A stretch of 64,000 bases of DNA, taken from IMG/VR virus record IMGVR_UViG_3300005264_000040, positions 96,001 through 160,000 of that record; one strand, given 5' to 3'. The notes beneath the pieces are model-generated. The model made no database searches, was not told where the DNA came from, and saw only the letters and a list, made by a program, of their open reading frames with translations. Shown here piece by piece: positions 1 to 60,172 of this stretch. The translations under genes and the position numbers were made by a program. Each line of letters starts with the position of its first letter. Position 1 is the first letter of the stretch. The stretch comes from a virus.

Positions 1-103
1 ATTTCTTTTTATCAAGAATAGTTTCTGGTGTAATTTCGATATCGTATTCTACCAAGTGTTCAGAAGTCATTTTTTTTGCTGCAGTTTCTGAAAGCACTAT
101 AGC
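1..103 (-). CDS. rpoB: Out-of-frame continuation of RNAP beta (AIVLSETAAKKMTSEHLVEYDIEITPETILDKKK...), runs off the window
   Basis: Manual translation of 103..2 on the minus strand gives the RpoB segment that normally follows GYNFED. Not in the ORF track. Confidence 0.85.
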
Positions 104-2030
104 ATGCTGTTTTTAAATTTTTACCTGTTGTAAGCTGATTCTTTTTAGAATAATTACTTTCTGCCAAAACAGTTCCTGGAGATACTTTATCTCCTTTTTT
201 GATTTTAGGAGTATGTCTAATGAAACTCGTAGGACCCGTTTTCAAATATGAGGCCATATTAAAGGTCTTAATAGTACCGTCTGGCTGTTTTACTTTGATA
301 GAGTTTTCAGACACGTCAGAGACGACGCCAGACACATCTGAGACGATATTAGTTTCAGTTGCAAGTAATTTTCCTACATCTGTTTTTCCTTTTTGAGTAG
401 CTTGTACTAAAGGTATCTCAGCATCTTTTAATGGGATAGCTTGTGTCATCTGTTTTGCTGCCATAGCAGCCCTACCTCCCTGCAATGATTGTAAATAAGG
501 AATTTGCAAGGTGGTTGCATCAAATAATTGATCTACATCTGTAAAAATATGAGTTACATCTTTTCTATTTACAACATCAAGTTTTCCGTGATTTAATGCT
601 TTTACATCATTTTCTTTTGCTATCCATTTTATGTTTTTCACTTTGCCTTTATCATCTTTTTCTATTTTAGCTTCTCCATATAATGCAATAACATATTTAT
701 CATAGTCAATTGGTCTTACCAGTTCATAATCTTTCTTCTTAATATTATAAAGTTTAGCTGCCAAATCTTTCCCTTTTCCTTTTTTAACAACTTGAGTTTG
801 CATAGTTTTATACAATGTTACACCTAACTTATCCGATTCAGGTGTATGAACAGGATCTACAACTCCAAATTGATAATCGTTTAAAGACCTATCCATTGTA
901 GTAATTTGTTGTTCGTCTTCCAACCCGCCTTCACCTGTTAATATAACTTTATTATTGTGTGCTAAAACAGAGAGAGGGTTATAACCATCCACTACTTGAG
1001 ATAATGATGAAGTTTTAAAAAATTTGAATATTGTGTTTGAAAATGTTTTTTTCAAAAATTCCAAATCTTTTATAGAAGATATAGAATCAACTTTATCTTC
1101 TAACGATTTTTGTATATATTTCATTTGATTTGAAAGTTTTTCTCCTAGTATATCTTCTATTTCAACAACTTTTTTGTATTTAAAATTAGAAGTTTCTGTA
1201 GGTTCTTTTTTACCTCCAGCTAAATCTATTGCAGATTTTATTAAATCTACTATATAATCTAAAGAAACTTTTTCGTGGGGAACATCAATGTTTAATTGAT
1301 TAACTTCAGGATCCATTATAGTTCCATTGAAATAGTCTTTAATTTTATCTACCATATAAGAATGTTCCCTTTTTTCAGGGTCCTTAAATATAATCTTATA
1401 AAAAGTTTCTACTGCTTGCTGAGAAGCTGTATTCAAATCTCCTTTAACATGTTTCAATGCATCATCAACAACATCTTTTCCTAACTTCTTTTTTAAATTT
1501 TCTACGCTATATCCCATACCAATTAAGAATGGGATAGCATCCATTGTTTTTGACATAAATAATTTAATTGTGCCTTTAATTGGATTATAAATTATTTTAA
1601 AATTCAAACCTTTTTCAAGGAAAGCCCTTGCTTCGTATTCGTCTCTTGAAGTTAATTTGAGATAGGATCCAGCTTTAAGTCTTAATTGAGTTGGAACAGA
1701 ATACTGTGTTCCATCTACAATAAAAGTCCCATGAATTCCCATAATAGGAAATTCCATAAGCGTAATCGTATCTTCATCTATTATTTTATTATTCTTTTTT
1801 AATTGTAATTTTGTATTAAGTTTAGCAGTAAGACTTCTATCAGTATTAAAGATTTCTTCAAGTTCTTTATAGTCTTTATAAGCTTCAGCCATATCTATTT
1901 TATAATCAACTAAATCAATAATTTGTGTTTTACCTTTAATAGGGAAAACTTTTTTTAATAATTGTTCTGCAGTTCTGATTAAAGAATTATTGACTCTTTC
2001 AACTGTTTTTTTAAGACTATTTTCAGACAT
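60..2030 (-). CDS. rpoB: Multisubunit RNA polymerase beta subunit, N-terminal and central part; reading frame breaks at about position 104
   Basis: RpoB motif equivalents in the correct order: GTFIVDGTQYSVPTQL, LSQVVDGYNPLSVLAH..GEGGL, FGVVDPVHTPE, IPYL..GRAAMAAKQMTQAIPL, GKNLKTA. Compact phage-type version. Confidence 0.93.
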   Translation of the reverse strand: MSENSLKKTVERVNNSLIRTAEQLLKKVFPIKGKTQIIDLVDYKIDMAEAYKDYKELEEIFNTDRSLTAKLNTKLQLKKNNKIIDEDTITLMEFPIMGIHGTFIVDGTQYSVPTQLRLKAGSYLKLTSRDEYEARAFLEKGLNFKIIYNPIKGTIKLFMSKTMDAIPFLIGMGYSVENLKKKLGKDVVDDALKHVKGDLNTASQQAVETFYKIIFKDPEKREHSYMVDKIKDYFNGTIMDPEVNQLNIDVPHEKVSLDYIVDLIKSAIDLAGGKKEPTETSNFKYKKVVEIEDILGEKLSNQMKYIQKSLEDKVDSISSIKDLEFLKKTFSNTIFKFFKTSSLSQVVDGYNPLSVLAHNNKVILTGEGGLEDEQQITTMDRSLNDYQFGVVDPVHTPESDKLGVTLYKTMQTQVVKKGKGKDLAAKLYNIKKKDYELVRPIDYDKYVIALYGEAKIEKDDKGKVKNIKWIAKENDVKALNHGKLDVVNRKDVTHIFTDVDQLFDATTLQIPYLQSLQGGRAAMAAKQMTQAIPLKDAEIPLVQATQKGKTDVGKLLATETNIVSDVSGVVSDVSENSIKVKQPDGTIKTFNMASYLKTGPTSFIRHTPKIKKGDKVSPGTVLAESNYSKKNQLTTGKNLKTACYSAFRNCSKKNDF

Positions 2031-3127: not shown

Positions 3128-5126
3128 AAAGTAATCTTTTGTACCCTTTTTGTTTTAACTCTTGATAATCACGTCTATCATTAATAAAAATATATCCCAG
3201 TTCAACCATTATATGAATTTTTTCATATGGATTTTCGGAGGTTATAACTATTTTGTTTCGTTTTGAAAAGAAAGAAATCAAATTTCTTTTTAAAAATTCT
3301 TCAATGAGCTCGTCAAAATAGCCTATGAAAGCTATACTTCTTTTAGGTTCCAAACGTTCGACAAAAGGTAAATTAGTGTATATAGAATTAGTATTATTAG
3401 TTATAATAGTGAAAAGTGCTTTTTGTTCGCGAGATATTTTTGCATCTATCGTATTTGAAGCTTTGTTTTTTAAAATGAAATATGAATTTTCAATAGGAAT
3501 AATATTTGTGCTTTGAACAAAAATTCTTGTGTCTATCATAATACTTGTTTCTTCACCTAAAGCTTTAACTTGGCAATCAATAGATAAAGGTCGCATACCA
3601 TTCTCATTAACTACAATCATTCCTATATCTTTTTTTAATCTTACATAATTTGTATAATCTCTATGAATAGAATTATAAACATCAAAAGAATTTTGTTGTT
3701 TTAAAATAGGGATTGAATATCCTGAGATAAACAAAGAATCGTTTTGCGGGGATGCAATTTGGGTTTCAATCGCGTTTTGTATATAAATTTGAATTTGCGA
3801 AACATTATTTATAATTATGTTTTTTTGAACCTGCGGTGGCATTTGACTTATATTTGTATAATGAAAAATATAAACATTGGAATCATTTGCCTCTCCCATT
3901 AAATATGTTTCATCGGAATTTATAAATACACCATATGTTTGTGTTGGATTTTTTGGATACAAAGAATCAATAGAAGTATTATATAAAGGAGCTTCAAATA
4001 TTTTCATTCCTTCAGAAAGATTTAATCGTACTACTGTTAAAGTTTCAGAATTAACATCTTTTTTTATAAAAGTTAAAATATAAGCATTTCCCGTATACTC
4101 CAATTCTCCCAACGATGTATGTGTGCCAAAATGTTTTGGAAAATTCACATAATCAAAAGCATCTTCAATATGGATAGTTCTTAACAACCCTGAATATATA
4201 GTGTTGTTTTGGTACGAAATATCAATTTTATATATATATATTTTTTTATTAATAGCATCTCTTGTATATATATATAAAGTTCTATTTTCATAAACACCAA
4301 CAAAATTAGCATCAATCAATGTTCCTGTTATGTGTATGTTTTTTGAAAAATCAACTTGTCCCGTAACGGTATTAATAGCTTCAACATACCAACCATTAGC
4401 ATCAGTTCTAATTATTATATAATATTTAGGCTCAGTTCCTCCTACAGGATCAAAAAAGAAAGCTCTAATTACATAAGATATGTTAAAGTGGTTCAAAAGA
4501 GAAACGTTATTGTTACTAATTTCAAAAACATATAATTGTTGATAAAAAACAAATAAAAATTTATCTTTCAATAAATAGTTAGGAGCTCGCCAATATTGGT
4601 AATGCTTTAATACCTGAGAGGAGATTGTGTATAGACTACTTAAAGTACCGTTAAGAGGATTATCTTTAACATAATCATATTTATATAAAACACTAGAATA
4701 AGAATCACTCGTTGCAAGGATTAAAAAACTTTGATTTATATCATCATATTGTGGGGTTATATTTCGTGTAAATAATATTTTTCCATCTATTATTAAGTTA
4801 TGAAATCTTTTTGTTGTAGGGTTTGTAGGATATATAAATTCATTCGCAATACCATCTGTTGTTATAAAAAAACCATTTGAAGATAAGTTTGTTAAATACA
4901 ATGCGTTATGATCTTTATCATACAAAAAACTATATTTTGGATCAAACGGAAATACAGTAGAGGAATTAAAGGCAATTCCATATATACTATGGAATTGCTT
5001 GGCATAATAAAAAGGAGGATAATCTCTCAATGCATCTGCATAATAAGAAGATAAAGATTGATAACCTGTAAACGAATAATAATCATTAATATTGAATAAA
5101 TATAAATATTTTGACAAAACAGCCAT
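3126..5126 (-). CDS. Modular virion-surface or adhesin-like protein: beta-rich (propeller-like) head, short stalk, shared C-terminal module
   Basis: Y/I/N-rich beta-strand pattern. C-terminus IAFIGYFDELIEEFLKRNL...YIFINDRRDYQEL is shared with paralogues. Confidence 0.6.
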   Translation of the reverse strand: MAVLSKYLYLFNINDYYSFTGYQSLSSYYADALRDYPPFYYAKQFHSIYGIAFNSSTVFPFDPKYSFLYDKDHNALYLTNLSSNGFFITTDGIANEFIYPTNPTTKRFHNLIIDGKILFTRNITPQYDDINQSFLILATSDSYSSVLYKYDYVKDNPLNGTLSSLYTISSQVLKHYQYWRAPNYLLKDKFLFVFYQQLYVFEISNNNVSLLNHFNISYVIRAFFFDPVGGTEPKYYIIIRTDANGWYVEAINTVTGQVDFSKNIHITGTLIDANFVGVYENRTLYIYTRDAINKKIYIYKIDISYQNNTIYSGLLRTIHIEDAFDYVNFPKHFGTHTSLGELEYTGNAYILTFIKKDVNSETLTVVRLNLSEGMKIFEAPLYNTSIDSLYPKNPTQTYGVFINSDETYLMGEANDSNVYIFHYTNISQMPPQVQKNIIINNVSQIQIYIQNAIETQIASPQNDSLFISGYSIPILKQQNSFDVYNSIHRDYTNYVRLKKDIGMIVVNENGMRPLSIDCQVKALGEETSIMIDTRIFVQSTNIIPIENSYFILKNKASNTIDAKISREQKALFTIITNNTNSIYTNLPFVERLEPKRSIAFIGYFDELIEEFLKRNLISFFSKRNKIVITSENPYEKIHIMVELGYIFINDRRDYQELKQKGYKRLL

Positions 5127-5142
5127 ATTATTACACCTCTTT

Positions 5143-6609
5143 TTATTCTATTTTTATATAAAGTTTTGAATACGGATCTGAATCGTTCTTTATTATTCTT
5201 CCATCGATTTTAAAGTAACTTACAAGATTTCTTTCTAAAAGAGCATAAGCAACTTTTTCTTGCCTCCCGGAAAGTGTAATTGTAGTATTAGATTCAATTT
5301 CATTTAAGATAGGAATGTTTTTATAAATAACATTTCTGTTATTTATAATAATGGTTTGATAATCATGTTTTTGTTTTAAATTTAAGTCTTCAACATTAAT
5401 ATCAGTTCTTATTCCATTTTGTATATTTTTTAAATGATATACAAAATTTTTATAAACTTCATTTACTGTTTCTCTTATTTGCAAAATTAATTCGTTTTCG
5501 TTTATAAACTTCGAAAATGAAAGAACTACATTTTTCCCCATTGAAACAGGCAAAACACTGATTTTTATTTCTTTTGTAGAAAAATCTATTATATATACAT
5601 GAAGTTGTTTTAATTTTATGTTGTATTTCAAAGCTAAAAGTTTTTTATTAGTTGGATTATAATAAAAGTCTTCTATAAAATCAGGATAAAAATTAGTTTT
5701 AGGTATTGGGTACATTTCTATTACAGTATTAGTTGTTTTATTTATATTCCAAAAGCAATATTCTGAAACTAAAATATTATTGGATACTATTTTCCCTTCA
5801 GTAATTAAATATAAATTAGAACCTTCTTCTTTAAAATTAACTACTTCTGAAATATCTATCTTATAATTTTGATAAACTTTTGGCACAATATTTGTTTGGT
5901 TAGTACCATTTTGTACTTTCCCTTTTTTTGTCAAATAGCGATTTTCTGACAATCTGTATATTATTTTGTCATCAACAAAAGTATTATTGGTTAAATCACT
6001 ATATCCATATACTACATTATTTTTATAATCTTTCAGCATATTCTTTTTATTTATTATTCTATAACGCAGTTTATCCTTGTATATCATAGTTTCTTTTTGA
6101 ATTACACTTGAATAAAATAGATAAGGTTCTATAAAAGGCAAAAAGAAGATTTTTCCTTTTGTGTTTTTGTATGTTGGATCTAATCCGAATCCTCTTACAA
6201 TACTTGTGATATCGACTTGAGAAGAATCATTAGGATTAACTAACACAACTTTATTTTCTTCTAAAATATTAGAATTTTTTGTATATACTATTTTTATTTC
6301 AGAATTATAATTTATAACACCACTCGGAATTAAATCATCGAAAGGTTGAAAAGTTTTTACTACATCACATGTATTAGGATCTAATTCAAAGATAAGAGAT
6401 TCACCTCTAATGTAATTTGTTCCTTTTACCTCATAGTAATTTCGAGAACTAGAAGGCAAAGTTGTTGTATTTACAACAAGATTGGAGCTAGTATCATATT
6501 TAATGATTTTATTGTCATAAAAAATACAAATTAGATTACCATTCATTTTCACCGCAATATTTTTTTCGGGTATTGTATTTTGAATTATTATATTACTTAA
6601 AACACTCAT
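5143..6609 (-). CDS. Paralogue of 3126..5126, with the shared C-terminal module truncated
   Basis: C-terminus TIIINNRNVIYKNIP..LLERNLVSYF..PYSKLYIKIE aligns with TIITNNTNSIYTNLP..FLKRNLISFF..PYEKIHIMVE. Confidence 0.6.
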   Translation of the reverse strand: MSVLSNIIIQNTIPEKNIAVKMNGNLICIFYDNKIIKYDTSSNLVVNTTTLPSSSRNYYEVKGTNYIRGESLIFELDPNTCDVVKTFQPFDDLIPSGVINYNSEIKIVYTKNSNILEENKVVLVNPNDSSQVDITSIVRGFGLDPTYKNTKGKIFFLPFIEPYLFYSSVIQKETMIYKDKLRYRIINKKNMLKDYKNNVVYGYSDLTNNTFVDDKIIYRLSENRYLTKKGKVQNGTNQTNIVPKVYQNYKIDISEVVNFKEEGSNLYLITEGKIVSNNILVSEYCFWNINKTTNTVIEMYPIPKTNFYPDFIEDFYYNPTNKKLLALKYNIKLKQLHVYIIDFSTKEIKISVLPVSMGKNVVLSFSKFINENELILQIRETVNEVYKNFVYHLKNIQNGIRTDINVEDLNLKQKHDYQTIIINNRNVIYKNIPILNEIESNTTITLSGRQEKVAYALLERNLVSYFKIDGRIIKNDSDPYSKLYIKIE

Positions 6610-6638
6610 ATTTAATTCCTCCCTTCATCATTTATTTT

Positions 6639-6697
6639 ATTATAACAGAAAAAAAAAGAAAATTGCTATTGGAAGAAGTCTCAAATTATGTTATAAT
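6639..6697. promoter_or_regulatory. Divergent promoter pair
   Basis: TGTTATAAT on minus (6639..6647) and on plus (6689..6697). The plus copy has TTGGAA (6669..6674) at a 17-bp spacing. Confidence 0.7.
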
Positions 6698-6709
6698 TAT
6701 AATGAATAA

Positions 6710-7351
6710 TTGAAAGGGGGGTACGTTGTGAAATTCATTGTTTTTGAAGGAATAGACGGCTCAGGCAAAAGTACTTTGTTAAATAAATTAGCAGAACATT
6801 TGACAACGAAAGGTTTTGATGTGGAGAAAATACAAAATCCTGGAACTTTCGAAATTAGTCAAGATATTAGAATGATTCTTGAAAAATATCCACGACTAGA
6901 AGAACAAGAAAAATTTTTATTATTCGCAACTAATCATTATTTAGTTTCAAAATATATTGCAGCTTTCCTTGATAATAAAAAGAAAATATTTCTTATGGAT
7001 AGATATATTTTCTCTACTTTTGTATATCAAAAAAACGAAACAAATGGTCTCACAATTGAATATATGAAATATGTATTCAAATACTTACCAATTATGCCTA
7101 CTTTAACAATTGTTGCGAAGGTGCATCCTCTCATTGCAAAAGAAAGAATACTTCAAAGATCTGAAAAGACTACTTTGGATGAGCATGCACTGAATAGACT
7201 TTTTGAACTGTATGACAGGTATGAAGAACTTCCTACTATTTTCCCAAATCAAAAATTTGAATTTATAAGTACAGCTAAAAGTGAAGAAGAAAGTTTTGAA
7301 AAACTGTTAGAAAAAGTAAAGCCTATTTTAGGTGATTTATATGTGGAATGA
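6710..7351 (+). CDS. tmk: Thymidylate (dTMP) kinase
   Basis: P-loop FEGIDGSGKST, DRY motif (MDRYIFSTFVYQ) and typical length. Confidence 0.92.
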   Translation: MKGGYVVKFIVFEGIDGSGKSTLLNKLAEHLTTKGFDVEKIQNPGTFEISQDIRMILEKYPRLEEQEKFLLFATNHYLVSKYIAAFLDNKKKIFLMDRYIFSTFVYQKNETNGLTIEYMKYVFKYLPIMPTLTIVAKVHPLIAKERILQRSEKTTLDEHALNRLFELYDRYEELPTIFPNQKFEFISTAKSEEESFEKLLEKVKPILGDLYVE

Positions 7352-7856
7352 GCTTTTTGCGGATAATATTTTTATATTAAGTGAAAGCTATGGTTTAATT
7401 TATTTTTATTACAAGAAAAACCCTTTAAAAAAAGCTTTGTATTATATTAATTACCCAGAAAAATGGTTTGACAAAATAATAGAATATGTTTCAAAAATAG
7501 AAATGCCTTTATCGGATGATATAAATAAAAAATTTTTAAAATTTACATTTTCTAAATTAGATAAGGCTTTAAGAGATATTCATTACACAAATAAAATTTC
7601 AGATCTTAAAAAGTTTTCAGGAAAAAAATTTTATGGTTCTTCGTTTATAATAGTTGATAAAGAAATAAATGTATTTAAAAACTTATATTTCCAATCTCCT
7701 TATTTTTCAACATATAATGTTGTTGTGCCTGTTTTAATAGATTCAATAAGAAAATTTAAAACTATTCAACCAGAATTATTAAAAGAAAGAGGTCTTTATG
7801 ATATTGATAATGCTGCACAATTATTTGAATTTATTGTAAGGAGGAATAATGCATGA
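7332..7856 (+). CDS. Hypothetical protein
   Basis: 174-aa ORF coupled to tmk, with AGGTGA SD. Confidence 0.7.
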   Translation: MIYMWNELFADNIFILSESYGLIYFYYKKNPLKKALYYINYPEKWFDKIIEYVSKIEMPLSDDINKKFLKFTFSKLDKALRDIHYTNKISDLKKFSGKKFYGSSFIIVDKEINVFKNLYFQSPYFSTYNVVVPVLIDSIRKFKTIQPELLKERGLYDIDNAAQLFEFIVRRNNA

Positions 7857-8074
7857 AAATGGTAATTAACAACAGTGGAAGTTGGTCCCGAAGGTCTCAA
7901 CCGATTTCTATTAGAATGGGAAACACACATTACACACACGAGGTGAAAATCGATGAAAAAACGTCCAATCCAGTGGTCAGATTTGGTTTCTATCATAAAA
8001 GAAGGATCGAAGAAGACGATTGCGATGTGTCCAAAATGTGGCAAGAAGACAGCGACGATTTCACACATTACTGA
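7853..8074 (+). CDS. Small hypothetical protein overlapping the next gene by 122 nt
   Basis: ATGA coupling to the previous stop and AGGAGG SD. Confidence 0.4.
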   Translation: MKMVINNSGSWSRRSQPISIRMGNTHYTHEVKIDEKTSNPVVRFGFYHKRRIEEDDCDVSKMWQEDSDDFTHY

Positions 8075-8228
8075 TATTCTATATTGCAAAAATTGTGGCT
8101 TTTATGGTACTATAGAAACAGTTTATCTTGTTAAAAATAAAACAGCAAAAAAAATAGGTTTAAAACCTCAAATGAAAGACCCAAGACCCAAAGAAGGGGA
8201 TACCTTACCCTTACCTTTGGATTTGTGA
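7953..8228 (+). CDS. Zinc-ribbon protein
   Basis: CPKC...CKNC and GAGGTG SD. Confidence 0.75.
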   Translation: MKKRPIQWSDLVSIIKEGSKKTIAMCPKCGKKTATISHITDILYCKNCGFYGTIETVYLVKNKTAKKIGLKPQMKDPRPKEGDTLPLPLDL

Positions 8229-8246
8229 AGGGAGGGAATTAGTTGC

Positions 8247-8726
8247 GTGTTCGCTTATTACGCTAATGACTATAACAAAGAATTCGTTAAAACGTGGTTT
8301 CTATACCAAAAACAAAATGTAGGAACCCTTTTAAGAGATTTAGGAGAAGAAGGATTTTTTACTAAATGGTCTATAGAACCTGTTGTATATATTCCGAGAC
8401 ACTTGTTTTTACCTATTTATAAAGATATGAACCATGTCTTGGAAAAATATAGTCAAATAAAAGTTTCTTCCATAAGTATTGAAAGAAAAAACTTAGGCAT
8501 TACAAGACCATTTATAATCAAATATAAAAAAACTTTTTATGCATTATCCCCTACAAAATGTATGTCATTATCAGTATTAACTCATCCGTTAGAACTTAAA
8601 ATTCAAGAAAGGTATTTTTACAATGCTTTCAAATGGTTTTTCAAATACATGGAGAAAGTTCTTAAAACAACCTCTGAAGATGTAAAAGATTTAGCAACTG
8701 TTTTTTATGTCAATCCAAACATTTAG
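8247..8726 (+). CDS. Hypothetical protein
   Basis: 159-aa ORF with GGAGGG SD. Confidence 0.7.
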   Translation: MFAYYANDYNKEFVKTWFLYQKQNVGTLLRDLGEEGFFTKWSIEPVVYIPRHLFLPIYKDMNHVLEKYSQIKVSSISIERKNLGITRPFIIKYKKTFYALSPTKCMSLSVLTHPLELKIQERYFYNAFKWFFKYMEKVLKTTSEDVKDLATVFYVNPNI

Positions 8727-8740
8727 AAAGGTGGAGAAAA

Positions 8741-9124
8741 ATGGCAGAATCTTACGAATTTATAATTGAACAAGTTCCTCCAAGTGTCAATCGAATTTAC
8801 AGATTTAATAGAAGATATGGTAATATGTACAAAACAAAAGAAGCAAAGGATTTCCAAGATAAATATATTTTACCTAAGTATAAAGGAAAATTTTTTAAGA
8901 CAGAAAAGGTAAAACTGAGCATTATTTTTGTGCATAATAGAGATAGAGATATTGACAACATTTTAAAAGTATTATTAGATTCATTTCAGAAAATTATTTA
9001 TGAAAATGACAAACAAGTATATGAGTTGAATATAAAGAAAGTTAAGAGGAAAGGTACATCTTTCGTAAAAGTAAAAGTAGAAGAATTGCCGCCAGAAGCA
9101 ATAGAGGGGGTGGGGTTAATTTGA
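8741..9124 (+). CDS. rusA: RusA-family Holliday junction resolvase
   Basis: PPSVN motif, RDRDIDNILKVLLDS and ENDKQV motifs. Confidence 0.88.
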   Translation: MAESYEFIIEQVPPSVNRIYRFNRRYGNMYKTKEAKDFQDKYILPKYKGKFFKTEKVKLSIIFVHNRDRDIDNILKVLLDSFQKIIYENDKQVYELNIKKVKRKGTSFVKVKVEELPPEAIEGVGLI

Positions 9125-9684
9125 AAAAAGATTCTGTTATTTATAGTATCCCTAGTAAATTAAACAAACTAAAAACAAGCGATTTACAAAGTTTAATTAT
9201 TTCATATGCAGAAGAAGTCGGCGTAAGTTCTCCTAGTTTTATCAGGACATTAATTGATTTTTTAATTACTTTTTTAAAAGAAATAATTCCTGAAGAAGAA
9301 TATGAGACTTGGCCCGAAAAAGATGAGTATGTCCAAATGGTAAAAGATTTACTTTCTTCTTTTGATGAAAACTTTACTACTTTACAAAAAATTACATTGA
9401 TAAAAGAAAGCAAAACTACTTTCAACCCAAATCTTTATGCTTCACAATCATGGGAATTAGATGATTTGTTAAACACTTGGTTTAAAGAAGCTATTTACGA
9501 CATGATTTTGGATTATTTCGATAAAGTAGATGAAGTTAATATAAACAGCCCTTTGTTATTGGATTATCTTGTAAAACAATTAAAAATTTCTAGCAATGAG
9601 AAAGCACATTCTGTTGTAGTAAAAATTTCTAATACAAAAACAATGACTGCAGATGTAATGATTATAAAAAATGGACCTCAATAA
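9121..9684 (+). CDS. Hypothetical protein
   Basis: 187-aa ORF coupled to rusA. Confidence 0.7.
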   Translation: MKKDSVIYSIPSKLNKLKTSDLQSLIISYAEEVGVSSPSFIRTLIDFLITFLKEIIPEEEYETWPEKDEYVQMVKDLLSSFDENFTTLQKITLIKESKTTFNPNLYASQSWELDDLLNTWFKEAIYDMILDYFDKVDEVNINSPLLLDYLVKQLKISSNEKAHSVVVKISNTKTMTADVMIIKNGPQ

Positions 9685-9699
9685 AGGTCCATTATTTTT

Positions 9700-9984
9700 T
9701 TAAAGATATTTTTTTAAATCAGAAGCTGGTCTGAACTTTACTACAATTCTATCTCTTGTTTGTACTTGTCTCTTTTCTGGTGTAAAACCAAGAGTATAAA
9801 GTTTTCCTTTCCTTTTTTCTGCTTTAAAGGCACCAAAACCTCTGAATTTTACAGAACCTTCCTTTTCTATAAGTTCTTCTTTCATTACGTCCAATGCGTA
9901 GTTAAGGACATCTTTTACCACTTTTTTGCTTGCTTCTCCACTCATCTTGTTTGCTACGATATTAATAAGTTCTCCTTTAGTCAT
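9700..9984 (-). CDS. hup: HU/IHF-family DNA-binding protein
   Basis: MTKGELIN start, GSVKFRGFGAF and VVKFRPASDLK motifs. Promoter TGCTATAAT at 10028..10036. Confidence 0.92.
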   Translation of the reverse strand: MTKGELINIVANKMSGEASKKVVKDVLNYALDVMKEELIEKEGSVKFRGFGAFKAEKRKGKLYTLGFTPEKRQVQTRDRIVVKFRPASDLKKYL

Positions 9985-10059
9985 TTATTAGACACCCCCA
10001 GTATATATAATATTTTGCAACATTTAAATTATAGCACGTTTTTTCGTGAAAATCAAGTC

Positions 10060-11865
10060 CTATGCGAGATAAACGGATTGGATAAAGTCATCGATTTTAA
10101 AAACTACCTCTTGGAGTAATTTGTCATTGATAAGTATATTGCCCAAATAGCTCATTAATAACAGTTTTAAAAGATATTGTTTTATTTCTTCCATTTCAGG
10201 AAGTTTTTCTTTCAAATTTTCTGCATCAACATCTCCAACTATTGCTAAAGTGATTAAAGTTTCTAATGCTAAATCTGGTATATCAGAATATTGTGTCAAA
10301 TCATTGGCTAATTTAAGGAATGAAGTTCTATCGTCATATGTCATAGATCTTATTTTAGAAGCAATCTTAACAACATATTTTTTAGTATTTTCAGCCCATT
10401 CTTTTTGCCAATCTGGTACTTTGCCTAAATCTGAATATTTTCCTCTAATTATGGTAATTAATTTTACTTTCATATTTTTTAAATTAGATCCTAATATTTT
10501 TTTTATTTCATTTTTATCTACTCCGAATGAAGCTAATTTTTCCATTATACCATATTTATCGTATATTTCTTTTGTATAACCATCTTCTACTTCAAACATG
10601 CCATTTGGTTTTTTCTTAATATACCATTCAATTGAATGGTCATTAGCCGTTTTTGTTTCTTCAACCTCATATAGTTTCCAATGCAAAGGAATATATATTG
10701 TATTATCCGATTTGAAAATTTGTTTTAATCCTGCTACTTTTTTAAATTCTAATTCTTTGTTAGACCACAACGTTTGAATTAATCCACTTTTACCGTTATC
10801 ATATATTCCTTCGATTACAAAAGGTTCTGTTGTATGATTCTTTTCTCCCAATAAACCTGAAAAAACGCATGGTCTTTCATATGCTAATATTTCTGGTTCA
10901 TAAAATTCTTTTAATGAAGCTGTTTTTCTAGTTTCAAAAGAAACTTCAGGACTATCTAAATTTGTATATTGATTTATAACATCAGGAGTAACTTGTGCTA
11001 CTGCTCCTGCTACTATAGGAAGTATATCTATATCCTTTTCAGGATTCCATTTGCTTACATCTACTCCTTTATACATTAACAATTGAACTACTTGTTCTTT
11101 TGCCAAACCAGGAGCTTTTTGAAGAGGTTCTGCTTTTGGTTCAGTTTTCACTTCTACAGTATAAATAGGTTCTCCATATGGTTGTGGAGTTTTCAATATT
11201 TTGACATATCTTGCTTGCTGCATCTCGTCATCTTCTTCTCTTTCTTGTTGCATTGGTGGTTGTTGTGTATCTTGAAGATTTGTATCTTGCATTTGCTTCT
11301 TTTGTATTATATTCATTAATTGATTAGAAGCTTTCTTTATTAATTGTCTAAATTTTGGGTTAGTTTGAAAATCATGTAATAAATCAGAATCCATTTTTAT
11401 AAAATATTCGATATCTTGCAATGCTTGTTCCGGATTCTTGAGAGAACCTACTTTTATTCCCATACCATTAACAGAGTGGGAAGGAATAAATGGCAAAGGT
11501 TTTTCTGCTGTAGGTGGCTTTTCTTTTATAGGTCTTCCTATAGTATTTGCATTTTGTGCCAAGTTATTAAAATGATTTTCATCAAGCACTTCTAAATTCC
11601 CATTATTATCAATAAATATTGTCAGAGGAGCTAACTTTTTGTTTTTTATAATAGCAGGAACTACAAATTGTATTTCTCCTAATTTAAATACTAAAGCAAA
11701 AACAGTTTTCATCATATCATCTTCTACTATTTTTACTTTAACAGAATCGTATTTTACATATGGATGCAAACTTTTAAACACTTTTATTATATAAAATGGC
11801 CACTCTGATTTTTGACTCGGCATTTTCTTTTCTTTTATTTTAGAAACATCAATCATGTTTGTCAC
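10060..11865 (-). CDS. Putative virion (head-associated) protein with repeated K-x-A-S motifs
   Basis: 601 aa with RKTAS, EKLAS, VKIAS, LKLAN and a Q-rich linker. Function inferred only. Confidence 0.55.
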   Translation of the reverse strand: MTNMIDVSKIKEKKMPSQKSEWPFYIIKVFKSLHPYVKYDSVKVKIVEDDMMKTVFALVFKLGEIQFVVPAIIKNKKLAPLTIFIDNNGNLEVLDENHFNNLAQNANTIGRPIKEKPPTAEKPLPFIPSHSVNGMGIKVGSLKNPEQALQDIEYFIKMDSDLLHDFQTNPKFRQLIKKASNQLMNIIQKKQMQDTNLQDTQQPPMQQEREEDDEMQQARYVKILKTPQPYGEPIYTVEVKTEPKAEPLQKAPGLAKEQVVQLLMYKGVDVSKWNPEKDIDILPIVAGAVAQVTPDVINQYTNLDSPEVSFETRKTASLKEFYEPEILAYERPCVFSGLLGEKNHTTEPFVIEGIYDNGKSGLIQTLWSNKELEFKKVAGLKQIFKSDNTIYIPLHWKLYEVEETKTANDHSIEWYIKKKPNGMFEVEDGYTKEIYDKYGIMEKLASFGVDKNEIKKILGSNLKNMKVKLITIIRGKYSDLGKVPDWQKEWAENTKKYVVKIASKIRSMTYDDRTSFLKLANDLTQYSDIPDLALETLITLAIVGDVDAENLKEKLPEMEEIKQYLLKLLLMSYLGNILINDKLLQEVVFKIDDFIQSVYLA

Positions 11866-41786: not shown

Positions 41787-44700
41787 TTATCCTCTGTAAT
41801 AAGGAATAAGATTATCTCTCATATAAACAATTGTTTCGTTGTCAAAACTATCATTAATTGTTGTAAGGTCTTCTGTGAATTTAACTTCTAACCAACCAAA
41901 ATCTGAATGGAATAAATGATTATCATTCATATGGACATCTGTAATGATTGTACTATAATTTGTCATAACTTCTTTCCACCAACCATAAACTTTGACTGTT
42001 TGTCCAGCTTCTATAAGTAATTTTTTGCCATTGATTGTTAATTCCAATTGAGCGTTAGCGTTGTTCTTGAATATTGTAACAGATATTGCTGTGTTTGCAC
42101 CAGAAAGAATACTATCAATTGGTTTATCTGCTTGCATTAATTGTCTTAAGTTTGACATAAATTTGGCATTTGTATTTTGCTTATAGAATTGATTCATAAA
42201 TGCATCTAATCTATTTATCTTTGTATCATTTGTTGCTATGTATGTATCAAGATCCACATCAATTGATTTTTCTGGTAATTGCTGACATGTAATAAGTTTT
42301 TGATGATCTATATCTGCTAATGAATAACCTTCAATTAAAAGTTGTTTAAAACTATTTATATTATTATAAATATCTAAATCTAAACTGTACTGGCTATAAC
42401 TTAAAATATCTATGTCGAATATATTAGTATAAATAGAATTTTGTAAAGTTTTGTTGAGTATGATATTTTCTAATAATTCAAAAGAAAGATTATAAATATC
42501 TATATTTTGATGTTCTTCTAAGAAAATAGAATTAATAGAGCTGATAAATTTCGTTGATTCTTCTCCGAATACAAATACTTGTGTATCTAAGTACCTGGAA
42601 GAAGCTATTGCCAAATTAAATACTATTGATTCTATGTATTTCATTAAAGTGCCATATGATAAGAAGTAATTGAATATTGCTTTGTCATATACTGAAGTCT
42701 GCTTTATTATGTTGTCAATATCTATTTCCGATTTTAATCCTAAAATATAAGCAGTACTTTCTAATTCTATTTGTTTTGTAATGTCAAGTATCATTCCATA
42801 TACATCGAAATTATTGTTTATTGAAGATTTCTGGAACATTTCTGACACAATATCGGAAATTTTTGCTGGATTTATTACTATTATGTGAGATTCTATAATA
42901 TTTTCTGTTTTAGAATATTGTGTATTTTCTGTTTCTACATTTATTGAACTACTTAAACCATAAATGTAATTGAATACATCCAATGGATATTCAAGAACTT
43001 GTGTTGCTGCAACTATTTCAGCTTCAAATATGTTCGAAATTAATGTGTAATCTAATATATTTATATCAAATTGACTTTCTAATAAATGAGAAACATACAT
43101 TTCAGCTTCAGTGCTTAATGTGTATTTGCTCCATTGTAATTCTATTGTGTCAATATCTTGCGTTGTTTGAATTCCGTAAATATAATGTACTGAATCAAAT
43201 TCGATGTTTGTTCCCATAAGATGTACTGGTATTGCTTCTATATCAAATTTTTGTCCTATGTAACTGTAAAGCTCAGATGTTATATCTTGACTTTCTTTAC
43301 TCCAAATAGAATTATAAATATCACCCGAAATAGAACTCAATATTCCTGCTTGTACTAATTGAAGATTAATTCTTACACTTTCATTTGTTTCTGCTTCAAT
43401 ATTTGTATCAAATATTGTTGAATATAAGAGACTTGCATATTCAGTAGATTCAATTGAATTAGTTAATTCAGTAAATTGAAGCATTTCTGTCTCTATTGTT
43501 TTTTCCAAAAGTGAGAATACTGAGTTTGTAACTTCTAAATCCATAGCATCTAATGCTGTATGTATTAAATTTTGTACATTAAAAGGAGTTTCTAAACTGT
43601 GGGATACATATTCCTTGGCAACTATATCTTTTATTGATGTAATAGCTTGCATGGTAGCATTTTCTATTTGATTTTTCAAGAGTGTGACATAATAGGATTC
43701 AATAAGATTTTGTTGTAATACATATCCATTTATAATAGATTCAAGAATATTGTCAGTATCAGAACTAATAAGGTTATTAGCTATTAAATGAACACTTCTT
43801 CTAAGATTTTGATACATTTCCAATTCCATGATTTGTTCTGTAATTGTATATTGCAAGAAATCTACATATATATCTTTAGTATCTGATAATCCTGTAATTT
43901 TAGATTTTGTATCGATAAAGAGATTAAATAATTCATATGAAGTAACTGTTGCATTAAAGAAAATACTATATTCAATATTTTGATGCCACAAATCACTACT
44001 TTCTATATTTGTTTGTGCTAAAGAATGTTGCAATATTTCATTATCTAACAACAACGAACTGCTTAACCCAGATACCATTACTGAATTATCTATATTTATA
44101 TCAGTGTGACTATAAGTTTTCATTTCCGAATATACGCTAAGCAAATATTCTGAGAATTGTTTTGTCAAAGATTCAAAGTCTAACTTTTCTAAAGTATGCT
44201 GCAAAGTTTCTGCTGCTACTTGTAAATCATAAATTGAATATTGTGAATTAAATACATCTACATCTATTTCAGAACTTAATCCTACATGTAATGTGTAATT
44301 TCCAATATAAAGAGAATATTGTTCTGTTGGCATCATCATTACATCAAAAAATTTCGTGTATTCAGAACGTTGAAGTGTATTACTATCTTCAACAGTTAAA
44401 GGAACATGACCTACCTGCAATGAAATTGTGTCCAGATCATTTTTAAGCTGATTGTATTGGTTCATTACCACATCAAAATCTACAAATTCTGAAGAATATA
44501 ATTTAAGCAATAATGCTACTTCACTAGATTTCATCGAATGTTGTAAAGTATATTCCGTTAATTGATTTAAAATCTTGGTATATTGGAGCATATCTGCTAA
44601 ATCTATATTTGAATTTAATAATGAATATTGCAAAGCATTAGTTTGTACTGCTTCTGATAATACTGTTGTTTGAAGAACTGCAGATTCTGCTAAATTATTA

Positions 44701-47700
44701 GTTGCGGAATATTGTAATAAAATAACATCTGTATTGAGTTCTTTTATTGATTTTAACCATGTATAATATTCTGTTTCTTTTGTAAGCCATGTAGGATCTC
44801 CTACTATTTCTCCAGTAACATCATTTACACCGTCATAAACTTTATAACCATAACCTTCATTAAAGACATACGATGCTATTAAGTTAGTTGCATCTGCTGA
44901 AGCTGGTTCTACATCTGCTTCCCAAATTTTTAAATCATAAATTTTATCTAAGAAATAGTTATCAGGCACATATCCTATTAAGTTGATACTTACAGGTACA
45001 TCTGTTTCTGCTGTTGTTATATCTATTTCTGTGCCATCAATATATAAATGATATTCTCCATTAATTCTTTTTACTACTATATCATGCAATCCTACAGCTG
45101 GTGCATCATTCAATTGAATAAAGTCATTTTCTTGTGATTGATACTCTTCAGAAGGTGCTGCAGCTTCATTCTTTATAGATATTAAACCAGCAGCATTAGC
45201 CACAGAATTCCAATAAGCTTTTGCGTAAATTGTGTAATCTTTATTTGTTTTATCAATATTTTCTAAAGGAACTGTCAAAATATAATCAGAATTAAATTGA
45301 ATACCTTTGAAAGGTTGGAATGCTTGTACATATGGTCTAATAGCAATTGGCCCGTTATCTGTTGTAGAATAAACGGCGTTAATTATTTTAACTGCAGTTG
45401 CGTTTTGCGTAATTGCATCCGTTGTAAATATCAATTCATTATTTATATAAAAATTTGTTGAGCCATCAATTCTTTGTATTTTAAAAGAAGCCGATTTGTT
45501 TATATTAATATCATCATCTGGGAATATATCTACATTTGCTACTACAACGCCATCTGGATTAGTTGAAGTTACTTTATATACTTTTAATGAATCATAATTT
45601 CCATCATTAGAAGCATTATCTTCTGCTACCAGCAAATATTCTGTTCCATCTTTTAGTACAACTCCCAAACCTCTTACTGCATCAATTGAATCTGCCCATT
45701 CCATTTTAGGTAAATCTAATACAAAATCTTCAGTAAATTCATTGTCAAACTCATATATAATTCCTGCATTTGATAAATCGTTATAAGAAGCAGGTTTTTC
45801 ATCTATTTCTAAGAATGTATTATGATAAATAAGTTTTGCATTTGGCAATTCTTTGAAATATGTATTAAGAATAGTATCGTAAGCCCAATAATCAATATGC
45901 CTTTCATAAGTTGTAAAGGATTTATTTGTGTTAGGTTGAATCCAAAATTCATTTAATCCTGTTGTTAAATTTACTGGTCCTATATAAGTAGCATTATCTG
46001 TTACAACAGCAGGTACTACTGAACCGTCTGGTTTGACAACTGATATATTTGTCATATCATTAAGATTAAACCCAAATCTTTCTACGAAGAATTGTTCCGG
46101 TATTTTCAACATAACGCTTTCTCTATTAACAGGTGATTCTATTAAATATTTAGCTTTTAAAGGAGTTTGGATATCTTTGATTTTTCTATCATATTTCAAA
46201 GGATAATTTAAAGATTGAACATAAGCATCAATTGGTATTTCTTTGTTGTTATATTGTTTTGTCTGTCCTTCAACAAAAATAGAGGTTCCTAAATCTGTTG
46301 TATTTACAACAATATCAAAGAACTGTCTTGCATTAACTAATGGATAATAGGATAAAGAAATATTATTTTCTCTAACAGGCATTTGTATTAAATCTGAGAA
46401 ATCTGTACTGATTTCCAATGATACCGGAACATAAACCCTAACATCAAAAGGCTTTTTTGTATCTGTTGAAATATTAGTATCTATTCCGTTTAGTTTCATT
46501 TTATATTGAGAATAAGTACCATATGCATCATTTTCATAATACAACCAATCGAGAGTGTAATCTTTTGGATTTGTTATTGTTTCACTTAAATCATATTTAA
46601 ACACATATTCGTTGGTATCTGCATCTTTCATTACAAAATACAATATGCCATTTTCTTTTTCAAGACCCCATAGTAAATCAGTAGCAGTTTCAAATATTTC
46701 TATATTTACTGTATCCTCTATTATTTCATCGTTTAGATATATTACAGAAGTATCAATATTACCTCCATGACCCGAAGCAAAAAACCATCTAAGACGTTTA
46801 GGACTTGCAACTATATTCGTATTTTCTTCATTAGAAAAGGCGAGACCCGCTGCTATACTTAAATATTTTAATTCAACTAAACTATCTGCTTTATGATGAT
46901 GTTTGAAATAAAAATAATCTCCATTTTTAAAAGAAACTAAATTTAATTTATTTGAACCTTCGAATTTAAATGCAGCAGAAATATATTTATCTTCGTCAGA
47001 ATATATATAATTATTCCATACTGGATGTTCCATTTCAAAAATAGGTTCGTTTTTCCCATTAAACCCTATTTCAGTTATTAAAGGTTCAGCATTAGAATTG
47101 AAATCTGTTTTCCAATATCCTTCAGTGAAATTAACAAAAGTTTTGTTATGCACTAATAGTGGAGCAACTTCCGAAATTTCTTTAGATGTTGATGAATACC
47201 CATTCACATTAACATCTAAATTTTGGGTTGTTTGCATTCCTAAAGTATTAATCATTATATCAAAATATGGCTCACTTACATGTCTGGTAACTTTTAATGA
47301 TTGTATTTGATATCTATATAAATAAAAACCATAAGCTAAACGATTAAATCTTAAACCAATATGAGTAAGTTCAGAAACGCCTTCTGGAATTGTTTGCGTG
47401 TGAATCAAAACATCATAAATATAATAATAAGCAATTCTGTTTTCTATTTTTATTTTGAGTTTTAAATGTTGCCCTGATGGTATTACCGGTAAAGGTTCTC
47501 CTGTTTCAGGATTATCTATTTGTCTAAAATCAATTGTTTTAACAACACTATTACCAACAAAAGCTGCATAATCGAAACGTCCGTTATACATATAAGGTGA
47601 ATAAATACCAACACCAATACTTTTATCAAAGTTAAAATTATGATCGTCAGTTTGGTCGAAATATAGCTGTAACCCATCTTTGAAATAATAAAGGTAGCAG

Positions 47701-50231
47701 TATGTTCCTTCGTTTTTGAATAAAAGATCTAATTCAATTTCAGTAGAACCATATCTTCTTAAAGATATAGGTTCTTGAAGTTTAGTAATAGCAGCTTGTT
47801 CAGGCAAATCTCCTACTTGACTTATATTTTTCCCGGTTACATCATATTCTGTTTCGCCTACTTGTTCTACAAGCAAATGTCCATCATATGAATACCAATC
47901 TTTAGAAGCTTCAAAAACTTCTACTGTTTCATTTATACAATGTTGGTACATATTTGCTATTTCAAATGATTTATCAATTTCGCTTACAATTGAATTAATT
48001 GCATCTATGTTTATTTTCTTATTTATTCCGTAAATAGCTACAAAACACTCTATATTTTTAGTTTTTTCTGAAAATTGTGATAAATCATCCAATGATATAA
48101 ACATTGTATTACCATCACAACTATTAATTTGAGTTTCAATATTTTGTTGTTTTTTCCATGTTCCTATAAATTCTGAATCTATAGAAATATTCGAAAAATG
48201 TTTTATATAAGATTCAAAAAATAAACTTGTTTCTGAATACATTATATTTGTCAAATTTATAGGCAATTCATAAAGACCTCGGACTGTATGTAAAAAAACA
48301 TCTAATTCATTTTCTGTTTGACCTTTTTTTGTTGCAAAAGAATCAAGAGTTATATCCTGCACTGTAACACTTTTTATTGTTTCATATATATTTGTAGGAT
48401 AAGTTAAAAAGTTTTCATCAAATTCTTTAATTTCAAATCCATATTCGGAAACGGTTATAGGATGAACAGATGCCCCTCTTCCAGTATAAACATTTCTTCC
48501 AAAAGAAATTGCTGCCAAAAATTGGGTATTAGCAACATACGAAGTTAAATCTAAATCAAACACATAATCATCAACATACATTCTCCATTTATTTTCTTCA
48601 TCTAATTTTAACCCTATTTCTAAAGTATCTCCTTCTTTTTTTGACAATAAATGATTTATCAAAGGATGCGGACCGGACGCGTGAGCATCATATCCATATA
48701 TTTCATTGTTATTATAACTTACTCTAATTGAATCTAATTCATCACCATGTCCAGCCATCCACCAAAAATAAAGTCTAGGATATCCTGCGTAATTTGTAGT
48801 TCCGTCTGGAGCATCAAATGAAAATCCTATTCTTTCTTGATTGTCAAAGAAATTGTCTCTTGAAAAATCTTTATCTAAATATAATTTTACATAAACTTTC
48901 TTTAAATTAGAAACTAATAATTGATTATCGTTATGAGGACGAAAAGCAAAATTCCATCTTTCATCGTTCCACGCAAAATAAGTACTAGAAGCAAGTTGCA
49001 AATCTTCTTTTGCTAATTTGTTTTCTTTGAAAGTTTTTACAGTTCCAATAGTTGATTTAGTAAAAGTTGCTCCATTAAAAGTTTCAAGTTTATTTCTGAA
49101 GTCTGGCACTTTCTCTGTATGATGATAAATTTTCAAATAGCCATCTGAGTAAAATAATAATGTATCGTTATTTTCATCTATTGCTTGAAAATAAAAAGCT
49201 GAATTGTCCTCATTGCTATTAATAAAAGAAATATCCGAAAATGAAAATTCGGTAGGAGAAAACGTATTATTTACAGCGTCATATTTGTAAAGAGTATTAT
49301 CTAATCCGTAGTACAAAGTGTTATTTATAAAGGTTCCATGTTGAACTTCGCCAGTAAGGCTACGAGCCAACCAAACGCTTAAATCACTGTAATTAAGTAT
49401 CAAATATCCTTCGTTTAATAGAATAACTATTCTGTCATTTACTGTTTCTTGAAAAAGAATTTTATATACATAATTATTGCCTACAGTTTCTGTAGTAGGA
49501 TTATATTTTATAACTGTTATTTTTTCGTCACTAGTATAATTTAAAATTATAAATTCTCCTGTTTTAGTTTTTATCAATTCTCTACGGGGACTAGTAACAT
49601 TTGTAGAAGGATAATTTTGAGAAAATTTTTCTGTTACTGTCCCTGAACTATAATCAATTTTTAAAAGTTTTACACTCTTCGAAACTTCATCAGAAAAAGC
49701 AAAATAAGCTATATTGTTTTCTAAAACCGGAGTTCTATAAGATATACGATAAACTGAATTTATATTGTATGGAACGGTAATCTTCGAACTTTCATCTATT
49801 GTATGGTCTGATAACAAATCATACAATTCAAATCCATTTTCAGTTATAGCAATACCTTTGTTATTTAATTTGTCAATAGTAAAAAAAGTGGAAGAATTAA
49901 AACTCAAAGTTTGTATTACATTTACCTGAGAATTATTCCAGTCATACTCCAAAATAAATACTTCATAAAATTTATTAGAAGAATCATCTTTTTCATATAC
50001 AAATGCTAAAAATCTTGAATCTCCTAAACTTATAGCGTTTTGAAGATATAAAGCAGTTAAATTAGTTGCTTGAAGCGGCAGAGAAAAGGTTATTTTATTG
50101 TTCGTTAAAGGATCTACTAAATAAAACTCATTTGTAGTTCCAAGGTAATTTCGAACTAATATATACGAATCAATTTGGAAAATATAAGTGTTCGAAAGGT
50201 TCGAATCATAATATTTGGCAATCATACACAA
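41787..50231 (-). CDS. Giant (2814 aa) modular fibre/adhesin: propeller-like head, several lectin/LamG-like domains, long Q-repeat stalk, C-terminal module
   Basis: LamG-like GLHDIVVKRINGEYHLYIDG..IYDLKIW and Q-repeats over about 42130..44716. Promoter at 50266..50274. Confidence 0.65.
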   Translation of the reverse strand: MCMIAKYYDSNLSNTYIFQIDSYILVRNYLGTTNEFYLVDPLTNNKITFSLPLQATNLTALYLQNAISLGDSRFLAFVYEKDDSSNKFYEVFILEYDWNNSQVNVIQTLSFNSSTFFTIDKLNNKGIAITENGFELYDLLSDHTIDESSKITVPYNINSVYRISYRTPVLENNIAYFAFSDEVSKSVKLLKIDYSSGTVTEKFSQNYPSTNVTSPRRELIKTKTGEFIILNYTSDEKITVIKYNPTTETVGNNYVYKILFQETVNDRIVILLNEGYLILNYSDLSVWLARSLTGEVQHGTFINNTLYYGLDNTLYKYDAVNNTFSPTEFSFSDISFINSNEDNSAFYFQAIDENNDTLLFYSDGYLKIYHHTEKVPDFRNKLETFNGATFTKSTIGTVKTFKENKLAKEDLQLASSTYFAWNDERWNFAFRPHNDNQLLVSNLKKVYVKLYLDKDFSRDNFFDNQERIGFSFDAPDGTTNYAGYPRLYFWWMAGHGDELDSIRVSYNNNEIYGYDAHASGPHPLINHLLSKKEGDTLEIGLKLDEENKWRMYVDDYVFDLDLTSYVANTQFLAAISFGRNVYTGRGASVHPITVSEYGFEIKEFDENFLTYPTNIYETIKSVTVQDITLDSFATKKGQTENELDVFLHTVRGLYELPINLTNIMYSETSLFFESYIKHFSNISIDSEFIGTWKKQQNIETQINSCDGNTMFISLDDLSQFSEKTKNIECFVAIYGINKKINIDAINSIVSEIDKSFEIANMYQHCINETVEVFEASKDWYSYDGHLLVEQVGETEYDVTGKNISQVGDLPEQAAITKLQEPISLRRYGSTEIELDLLFKNEGTYCYLYYFKDGLQLYFDQTDDHNFNFDKSIGVGIYSPYMYNGRFDYAAFVGNSVVKTIDFRQIDNPETGEPLPVIPSGQHLKLKIKIENRIAYYYIYDVLIHTQTIPEGVSELTHIGLRFNRLAYGFYLYRYQIQSLKVTRHVSEPYFDIMINTLGMQTTQNLDVNVNGYSSTSKEISEVAPLLVHNKTFVNFTEGYWKTDFNSNAEPLITEIGFNGKNEPIFEMEHPVWNNYIYSDEDKYISAAFKFEGSNKLNLVSFKNGDYFYFKHHHKADSLVELKYLSIAAGLAFSNEENTNIVASPKRLRWFFASGHGGNIDTSVIYLNDEIIEDTVNIEIFETATDLLWGLEKENGILYFVMKDADTNEYVFKYDLSETITNPKDYTLDWLYYENDAYGTYSQYKMKLNGIDTNISTDTKKPFDVRVYVPVSLEISTDFSDLIQMPVRENNISLSYYPLVNARQFFDIVVNTTDLGTSIFVEGQTKQYNNKEIPIDAYVQSLNYPLKYDRKIKDIQTPLKAKYLIESPVNRESVMLKIPEQFFVERFGFNLNDMTNISVVKPDGSVVPAVVTDNATYIGPVNLTTGLNEFWIQPNTNKSFTTYERHIDYWAYDTILNTYFKELPNAKLIYHNTFLEIDEKPASYNDLSNAGIIYEFDNEFTEDFVLDLPKMEWADSIDAVRGLGVVLKDGTEYLLVAEDNASNDGNYDSLKVYKVTSTNPDGVVVANVDIFPDDDININKSASFKIQRIDGSTNFYINNELIFTTDAITQNATAVKIINAVYSTTDNGPIAIRPYVQAFQPFKGIQFNSDYILTVPLENIDKTNKDYTIYAKAYWNSVANAAGLISIKNEAAAPSEEYQSQENDFIQLNDAPAVGLHDIVVKRINGEYHLYIDGTEIDITTAETDVPVSINLIGYVPDNYFLDKIYDLKIWEADVEPASADATNLIASYVFNEGYGYKVYDGVNDVTGEIVGDPTWLTKETEYYTWLKSIKELNTDVILLQYSATNNLAESAVLQTTVLSEAVQTNALQYSLLNSNIDLADMLQYTKILNQLTEYTLQHSMKSSEVALLLKLYSSEFVDFDVVMNQYNQLKNDLDTISLQVGHVPLTVEDSNTLQRSEYTKFFDVMMMPTEQYSLYIGNYTLHVGLSSEIDVDVFNSQYSIYDLQVAAETLQHTLEKLDFESLTKQFSEYLLSVYSEMKTYSHTDINIDNSVMVSGLSSSLLLDNEILQHSLAQTNIESSDLWHQNIEYSIFFNATVTSYELFNLFIDTKSKITGLSDTKDIYVDFLQYTITEQIMELEMYQNLRRSVHLIANNLISSDTDNILESIINGYVLQQNLIESYYVTLLKNQIENATMQAITSIKDIVAKEYVSHSLETPFNVQNLIHTALDAMDLEVTNSVFSLLEKTIETEMLQFTELTNSIESTEYASLLYSTIFDTNIEAETNESVRINLQLVQAGILSSISGDIYNSIWSKESQDITSELYSYIGQKFDIEAIPVHLMGTNIEFDSVHYIYGIQTTQDIDTIELQWSKYTLSTEAEMYVSHLLESQFDINILDYTLISNIFEAEIVAATQVLEYPLDVFNYIYGLSSSINVETENTQYSKTENIIESHIIVINPAKISDIVSEMFQKSSINNNFDVYGMILDITKQIELESTAYILGLKSEIDIDNIIKQTSVYDKAIFNYFLSYGTLMKYIESIVFNLAIASSRYLDTQVFVFGEESTKFISSINSIFLEEHQNIDIYNLSFELLENIILNKTLQNSIYTNIFDIDILSYSQYSLDLDIYNNINSFKQLLIEGYSLADIDHQKLITCQQLPEKSIDVDLDTYIATNDTKINRLDAFMNQFYKQNTNAKFMSNLRQLMQADKPIDSILSGANTAISVTIFKNNANAQLELTINGKKLLIEAGQTVKVYGWWKEVMTNYSTIITDVHMNDNHLFHSDFGWLEVKFTEDLTTINDSFDNETIVYMRDNLIPYYRG

Positions 50232-56300: not shown

Positions 56301-56306
56301 ATTCTA

Positions 56307-59702: not shown

Positions 59703-59799
59703 CTCGTTCTTTTCTTTTCACATTATTATATCACACAAAAAAGTTAATATGCTAATAACAGTTTTCGGATACTTTCTTAACAAAGAGGACATATGTACT

Positions 59800-59817
59800 T
59801 AATATGGCGTACATATT
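59800..59817 (+). promoter_or_regulatory. Operator-like motif TAATATGGCGTACATATT
   Basis: Identical to the minus-strand copy at 26089..26106. Confidence 0.6.
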
Positions 59818-59939
59818 TCAATGGAAATATCACTGTAATGTGCATAAACAGTACTTTTAAACGTATGGTCTTGACATTTACATACCACTCTTAGAAAGGC
59901 ATTTCTATACTGTTTATTATACGATCGTCGCAAATCCGC

Positions 59940-60020
59940 TATTCAAAGGGGTGCAAATGACGGGCAACGACTCTATTATATATATATAATAGGACCGTTG
60001 AACGTCAAACGCACCCCTAT
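59940..60020 (-). repeat. 81-bp element, copy 2 (inverted)
   Basis: Exact reverse complement of 26012..26092. Confidence 0.95.
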
Positions 60021-60172
60021 TACGTGTTTATTAAACAGGGTAGATAAAGCAAAGATATGAATACGAAAAAAAATAACGTAAGCCTTATATTTATCGAATT
60101 TATGTTTGATTTTTGTTGTTAAATATGGTAAAATTAAAAAGAGAATTCATAAATAAGGAAGGAGAGGTAGCT

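Follow-up and report, generated by a model that had tools for sequence, protein, structure and literature searches.

The active-site gap in an RNA polymerase gene of an uncultured phage is a local lesion of one IMG/VR contig

Can a phage RNA polymerase work without the E/D pair of its β subunit, or does a new way exist of restoring the coding sequence for it? One of the two would have to hold if the gap described here were biological. It lies at the start of the window, by which we mean the whole stretch of 64,000 nucleotides that was analysed (G000:C1:96001–160000 of a single IMG/VR virus record of 177,768 bp, classed as linear, with a CheckV completeness of 83%, a G+C content of 29.6% and 0 N). 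The gene at this end of the window, on the minus strand, is an rpoB–rpoC fusion of an uncultured phage of ~180 kb, and its reading frame is broken at the active-site segment. We show below that neither an RNA polymerase without the E/D pair nor a new restoration of coding sequence applies: the gap is a local lesion of the IMG contig, and not RNA polymerase biology.

The interrupted polymerase gene

Two open reading frames cover the gene. ORF A (P0001, 656 aa; window 60..2030, minus strand, taken from the list of open reading frames and its translation) encodes in its residues 1–642 an RpoB-like β subunit without the C-terminal third, and its residues 643–656 are out of frame. Fragment B (P0003, 1475 residues) starts with 34 codons inside the window (1..103, minus strand), and its frame runs on to G000:C1:91676, with most of the protein beyond the window edge. 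It corresponds to the C-terminal part of RpoB (Rpb2 domain 6) fused to a complete β′. Rpb2 domains 3 and 6, as expected of an RpoB, are both found across the two proteins: the Pfam family RNA_pol_Rpb2_3 (PF04565, Rpb2 domain 3) matches P0001 (E = 1.2e-7) and PF00562 matches P0003 (E = 6.5e-46), but starting only at profile position 87. Moreover, P0003 holds TGRHGNKGT, with the GRHGNKG motif of RpoB, and carries the Mg-binding motif NADFDGD in the same chain as the C-terminal part of β. The Rpb1 domains PF04997, PF00623, PF05000 and PF04998 all match P0003, in keeping with a fused RpoC. A profile search of the contig returned a single locus each for Rpb2_6 and Rpb1_2, and hence no second polymerase.

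From position 125 to position 60 of the window, the minus strand reads GGT AAA AAT TTA AAA ACA GCA T GCT ATA GTG CTT TCA GAA ..., which translates as GKNLKTA, one stray T (window 104) and AIVLSE in the +1 frame. The junction itself, GCA-T-GCT (window 101..107, minus strand), was placed by comparing this sequence with an intact protein, P0128 (see below): Ala642 is encoded at 107–105 and Ala654 of P0128 at 103–101, with the stray T (104) between them. From 103 downwards the +1 frame reads AIVLSETAAKKMTSEH..., and the 14-residue out-of-frame tail of ORF A, CYSAFRNCSKKNDF (window 60..104, minus strand, with a TGA stop at 62..60), is the coding sequence of AIVLSETAAKKMTSE read in the wrong frame. 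Eleven codons, i.e. 33 nt, are expected between the two alanines and 1 nt is present, so 32 nt are absent; T104 could be either the start of a Tyr codon (TAY) or the end of an Asp codon (GAT). Besides shifting the frame, this loss removes YLAYKGMNFED, the counterpart of the stretch at about residues 803–814 of Escherichia coli β that includes E813/D814. The window allele is thereby without the active-site segment of RpoB, xMPxxGxN[FY]ED. An earlier note on this DNA had described this situation, namely about 32 nt and the active-site motif apparently absent with an extra base at position 104, and direct reading of the sequence bears it out to the base. The note had also failed to find the missing piece in the window by eye; our six-frame search of the whole contig with N[YFW]ED, P..G.N[YFW][ED]D and similar patterns extends this result, with no copy of the piece and nothing in an RNA polymerase context.

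Relatives of the enzyme keep the segment. In three IMG/VR relatives with 37–49% identity, the whole enzyme is one open reading frame (2139–2489 aa) with ...NLK[IV]A-Y[MV]P[FY][EK]G[LF]NYED-GIVIS[ED]... at the site, and the pattern between the two flanking blocks in relatives is AY[MLV]P[FY][KE]G.N[FY]ED. Aligning relatives had been suggested in the earlier note as a check on its own reading, and a BLAST survey now gives a uniform answer: the 11-residue segment is found, at constant length, in 120 of 120 database relatives. None of the 120 has an insertion at the site over 43 aligned columns, although a survey of proteins would miss any intron that breaks up a gene call. The segment can also be aligned without gaps to bacterial β subunits of solved structure (AFMPWKGYNFED and, in the Thermus thermophilus form of the active-site segment, AIMPFDGYNFED; E = 5e-22 to 3e-20). 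The segment is present in bacterial RpoB, whereas the window allele is without it entirely. The nearest cultured relatives are Salmonella phage Arash and Vibrio phages D69, D148 and D181 (tblastn identity of 32–35%, genomes of ~180–187 kb), and here the homologous segment is AYMPFKGFNHED in Arash (gp206) and GYMAYKGFNNED in D69, with its length unchanged in both.

The same phage in other assemblies

A single protein cluster at 90% identity groups P0001, the called form of fragment B (P0008) and P0128, a protein of 2128 aa known from Logan and ENA sources on a contig of 184,070 bp. P0128 consists of residues 1–642 of P0001, YLAYKGMNFED and residues 1–1475 of P0003, with 0 mismatches in the 2117 flanking residues. 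The product of the whole gene is therefore a single-chain β–β′ RNA polymerase of 2128 aa in which the GMNFED motif is normal. All records of the broken forms come from JGI/IMG, on one contig. As the intact allele is known as protein, breakpoints were placed at codon level. Its DNA gave no match in viral_contigs and metagenome_contigs, either in an exact search with a 26-nt flank or with a fully degenerate 60-nt back-translation, and blastn of the phage collection gave no match.

To examine the identity of the phage, we looked up 20 more proteins from various parts of the contig in JGI/IMG, Logan and ENA. Fifteen of them (542–3202 aa) are letter-identical between JGI/IMG and Logan and/or ENA, 14 in both Logan and ENA and one, a repeat protein of 1110 aa, in ENA only. 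Across ~22,300 compared residues (~38% of the contig), we counted 0 substitutions and three deletions, and open reading frames of 3202, 2812 and 1988 aa are uninterrupted in the IMG contig. Since the gene is intact where the same phage has been assembled elsewhere, the phage itself is not built with the gap. The 1110-aa protein (P0005; L001:143–3475, minus strand) is encoded just outside the window and contains many QYATEDEDSCPPID repeats; its JGI/IMG and ENA versions are the same, and the lack of a Logan record fits a Logan assembly that breaks in tandem repeats.

These look-ups also revealed two genes that differ, both of them shorter in the IMG contig. Some 6.1 kb of the length difference between the IMG and the 184,070-bp contig is left over beyond the three deletions. 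The second private deletion is an in-frame loss of 33 nt (window 49479..49481, minus strand; IMG against Logan/ENA protein) in a gene for 2812 aa (window 41787..50225, minus strand) that encodes 2823 aa in Logan/ENA (P0136). P0136 reads TTETV-EQSVVYSYTLYS-NNYVYK and the IMG version TTETV-G-NNYVYK, the junction codon being GGC (Gly249, window 49481–49479). The third, of 145 nt, lies outside the window (G000:C1:59260–59275, plus strand; again IMG against Logan/ENA protein). At this point two plus-strand open reading frames, of 1406 aa (55049–59269) and 556 aa (59269–60939), together make up one protein of 2011 aa in Logan/ENA (P0141), with a DNA_pol_A domain at residues 1609–2008; the 1406-aa part is primase/helicase-like and the 556-aa part is PolA. 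The loss corresponds to 49 residues (IDLFDIDL...FGFKPL) and leaves ACA TAA TG at G000:C1:59264–59271. Pfam detects no exonuclease domain in these 49 residues, and the PDB alignments begin downstream of them, at residue 1579. The apparent split between primase and PolA, and any 'missing part of a proofreading domain', are private to this contig. Judging from the back-translated missing peptides, the three junctions would share 0–2 nt of homology, and no sequence feature common to the three was seen. Finally, it should be noted that two minus-strand open reading frames of 887 and 295 aa (window 22256–25718) have 89 nt in common, read in different frames, which could be another private lesion of the IMG contig.

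Origin of the lesion

What, then, produced the gap? An assembly or consensus artefact has, in our estimate, a probability of about 65%; for example, short stretches without coverage would have been bridged by joining the pieces on either side directly, or a gap would have been wrongly closed. Three deletions, two of them out of frame in genes of transcription and replication, with 0 point differences fit an error better than descent, and so little junction homology (0–2 nt) is more readily explained by blunt joining than by replication slippage. The invariant length of the segment in the 120 relatives, Arash and D69, and a contig without adaptation to the break, support the same reading. On the other hand, the three long open reading frames mentioned above are whole, and the contig is not riddled with errors, which speaks against an artefact. 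These intact frames, and a deletion cleanly set in otherwise perfect sequence, would also suit a real defective variant, abundant in the sampled population and either a dead end or dependent on a helper. It would obtain its RNA and DNA polymerases from a co-infecting intact phage, or the polymerase would come packed in the virion. Indeed, the β and β′ proteins are abundant in the virion of Arash (PMC10585845), and with a polymerase carried in this way a null genome could start one infection after phenotypic mixing. We regard such a variant as distinctly the less probable origin. Three independent deletions with no substitution would be an unlikely mutation spectrum, and two of them disable large essential-looking genes (the RNA polymerase and the PolA fusion). 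A consensus assembler would also need the dead alleles to be in the majority at all three sites, and the sparse microhomology estimated for the junctions counts against this origin as well. It is doubtful, too, that a derivative of this phage with several deletions, defective in replication and transcription, made up most of the IMG sample and persisted as a helper-dependent genome of the defective-interfering type by means of a virion-carried polymerase. We infer a technical origin of the lesion, and not a genuine but dead variant. The earlier note had listed mis-assembly and a defective variant among its options, and both gain from the intact Logan/ENA allele and from at least two more private deletions; the part of its proposal that involved a polymorphic element at an intron or intein insertion site found no support.

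A programmed feature would have to make sense of the break as it stands, by frameshifting, by transcriptional slippage on an A8 run, by reinitiation to give two subunits, or by trans-splicing or templated repair. Some features of the site invite this idea: the junction has a TTTAAAA heptamer 8 nt upstream of it, the A8 run precedes the ATG at 70–68, and the stop of ORF A overlaps the region of this ATG. Yet T TTA AAA, the only slippery heptamer, would lead on a −1 slip to a TAG after six codons, while the shift needed is +1, and the products of +1 or A-run slippage would still be without the 11 residues. The local fold at the junction is no better than that of shuffled sequences (z = −0.63), so no stimulatory structure was detected there, and a search of Rfam found no intron, ribozyme or other RNA element at the site. 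With a slip site in the wrong direction, no structure and unbroken relatives, programmed frameshifting or recoding was rejected. Reinitiation fares no better. The open frame of fragment B opens just five codons upstream of the GTG at 97–95, and neither this codon nor the ATG at 70–68, the two candidate restarts, has a Shine–Dalgarno sequence; all six neighbouring genes have GGAGG-like ribosome-binding sites. A natural split into two subunits was discarded on account of this lack, of the lost motif and of a break confined to the JGI/IMG contig. Restoration by trans-splicing or templated repair, which the earlier note had entertained, found no support: no copy of the piece exists in the contig, and the intact allele has it in place. 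As the identical phage has an uninterrupted gene and no relative is split or shortened at the site, we consider a programmed feature of any kind extremely improbable. The site of the motif might instead have been cut by an intron or intein endonuclease of a co-infecting relative and repaired imprecisely, leaving a scar. Inteins and LAGLIDADG domains are indeed frequent in relatives of this RNA polymerase (PF14890, PF14528, PF03161), and one relative has an insert of ~350 aa after NADFDGD (see below). However, none of the 120 relatives carries an insert at the NFED site, the other two deletions sit in unrelated genes, and no endonuclease or intron remnant is found nearby, which makes a scar very improbable too; even taken together, the programmed and scar explanations claim only a marginal share of the probability. 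An intron or intein insertion site at the motif was likewise rejected, with insertions in 0 of 120 relatives and no Rfam intron. The palindrome at the junction, AGCATGCT, is not special either (2 occurrences in the genome against 1.3 expected; 10 against 10.4 for GCATGC).

The practical consequence of the artefact reading concerns the contig as a whole. At least three internal deletions are private to this IMG/VR record (one each in the RNA polymerase gene, the PolA fusion and the gene for the 2823-aa protein), and its 'split', 'truncated' or 'motif-less' genes should be compared with the 184,070-bp Logan/ENA version before they are interpreted.

Comparison with known polymerases and known errors

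The acidic pair is not invariant in phage enzymes, as variants of the motif show: it is NHED in Arash and NNED in D69, and a large clade of phage relatives (P0023, P0025, P0035, P0037 and others, of the 1450–1600-aa type) has G[LAKM]NSND instead of the bacterial GYNFED. In this clade, an Asn stands at the counterpart of E. coli β E813 and a Ser at that of the aromatic residue. A PDB match to a 665-aa chain named DNA-directed RNA polymerase (7s00_C) is weak (E = 4e-5).

The closest IMG/VR relative (L004; IMGVR_UViG_3300025618_000005, 3966–11435) has its ~350-aa insert directly after the NADFDGD of β′. The insert spans approximately residues 1270–1620 of P0007 (NADFDGD-STINSVYC...VIQD-TMAVHIPV), and the precomputed Pfam matches of P0012, equal in length to P0007, include PF14890 (intein splicing). 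The insert looks like an intein interrupting the Mg-binding catalytic loop; we saw no C-terminal His-Asn of the usual kind in it.

In Arash, the RNA polymerase is encoded as gp206, a fusion of β with the N-terminal part of β′, and gp216, the C-terminal part of β′ (PMC10585845). The enzymes of Arash and D69 are split within β′ (1525–1527 aa plus a second gene), whereas the phage studied here and its nearest metagenomic relatives have one chain of 2086–2549 aa. Neither Arash and D69 nor the metagenomic relatives show a break at the NFED motif. We place the gene among the single- or two-chain β–β′ polymerases of ~180-kb Arash/D69-like phages.

Naturally split β and β′ genes are found in jumbo phages of the phiKZ and AR9 types, and there, as in the window, a multisubunit RNA polymerase is covered by two adjacent open reading frames. 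However, where such a split is natural, no catalytic motif is lost, the parts start from signals of their own and relatives share the arrangement, whereas the break in the window has lost the motif, has no Shine–Dalgarno sequence and is unique to one contig. A closer parallel is offered by the frame breaks that arise from assembly or consensus errors, a general class in metagenome-assembled viral contigs. With this class, the break shares an isolated frame-breaking lesion in an essential and otherwise perfect gene, its absence from other assemblies and the company of more private lesions; it is unlike the usual single-base homopolymer errors of the class in that the lesions here measure 32, 33 and 145 nt.
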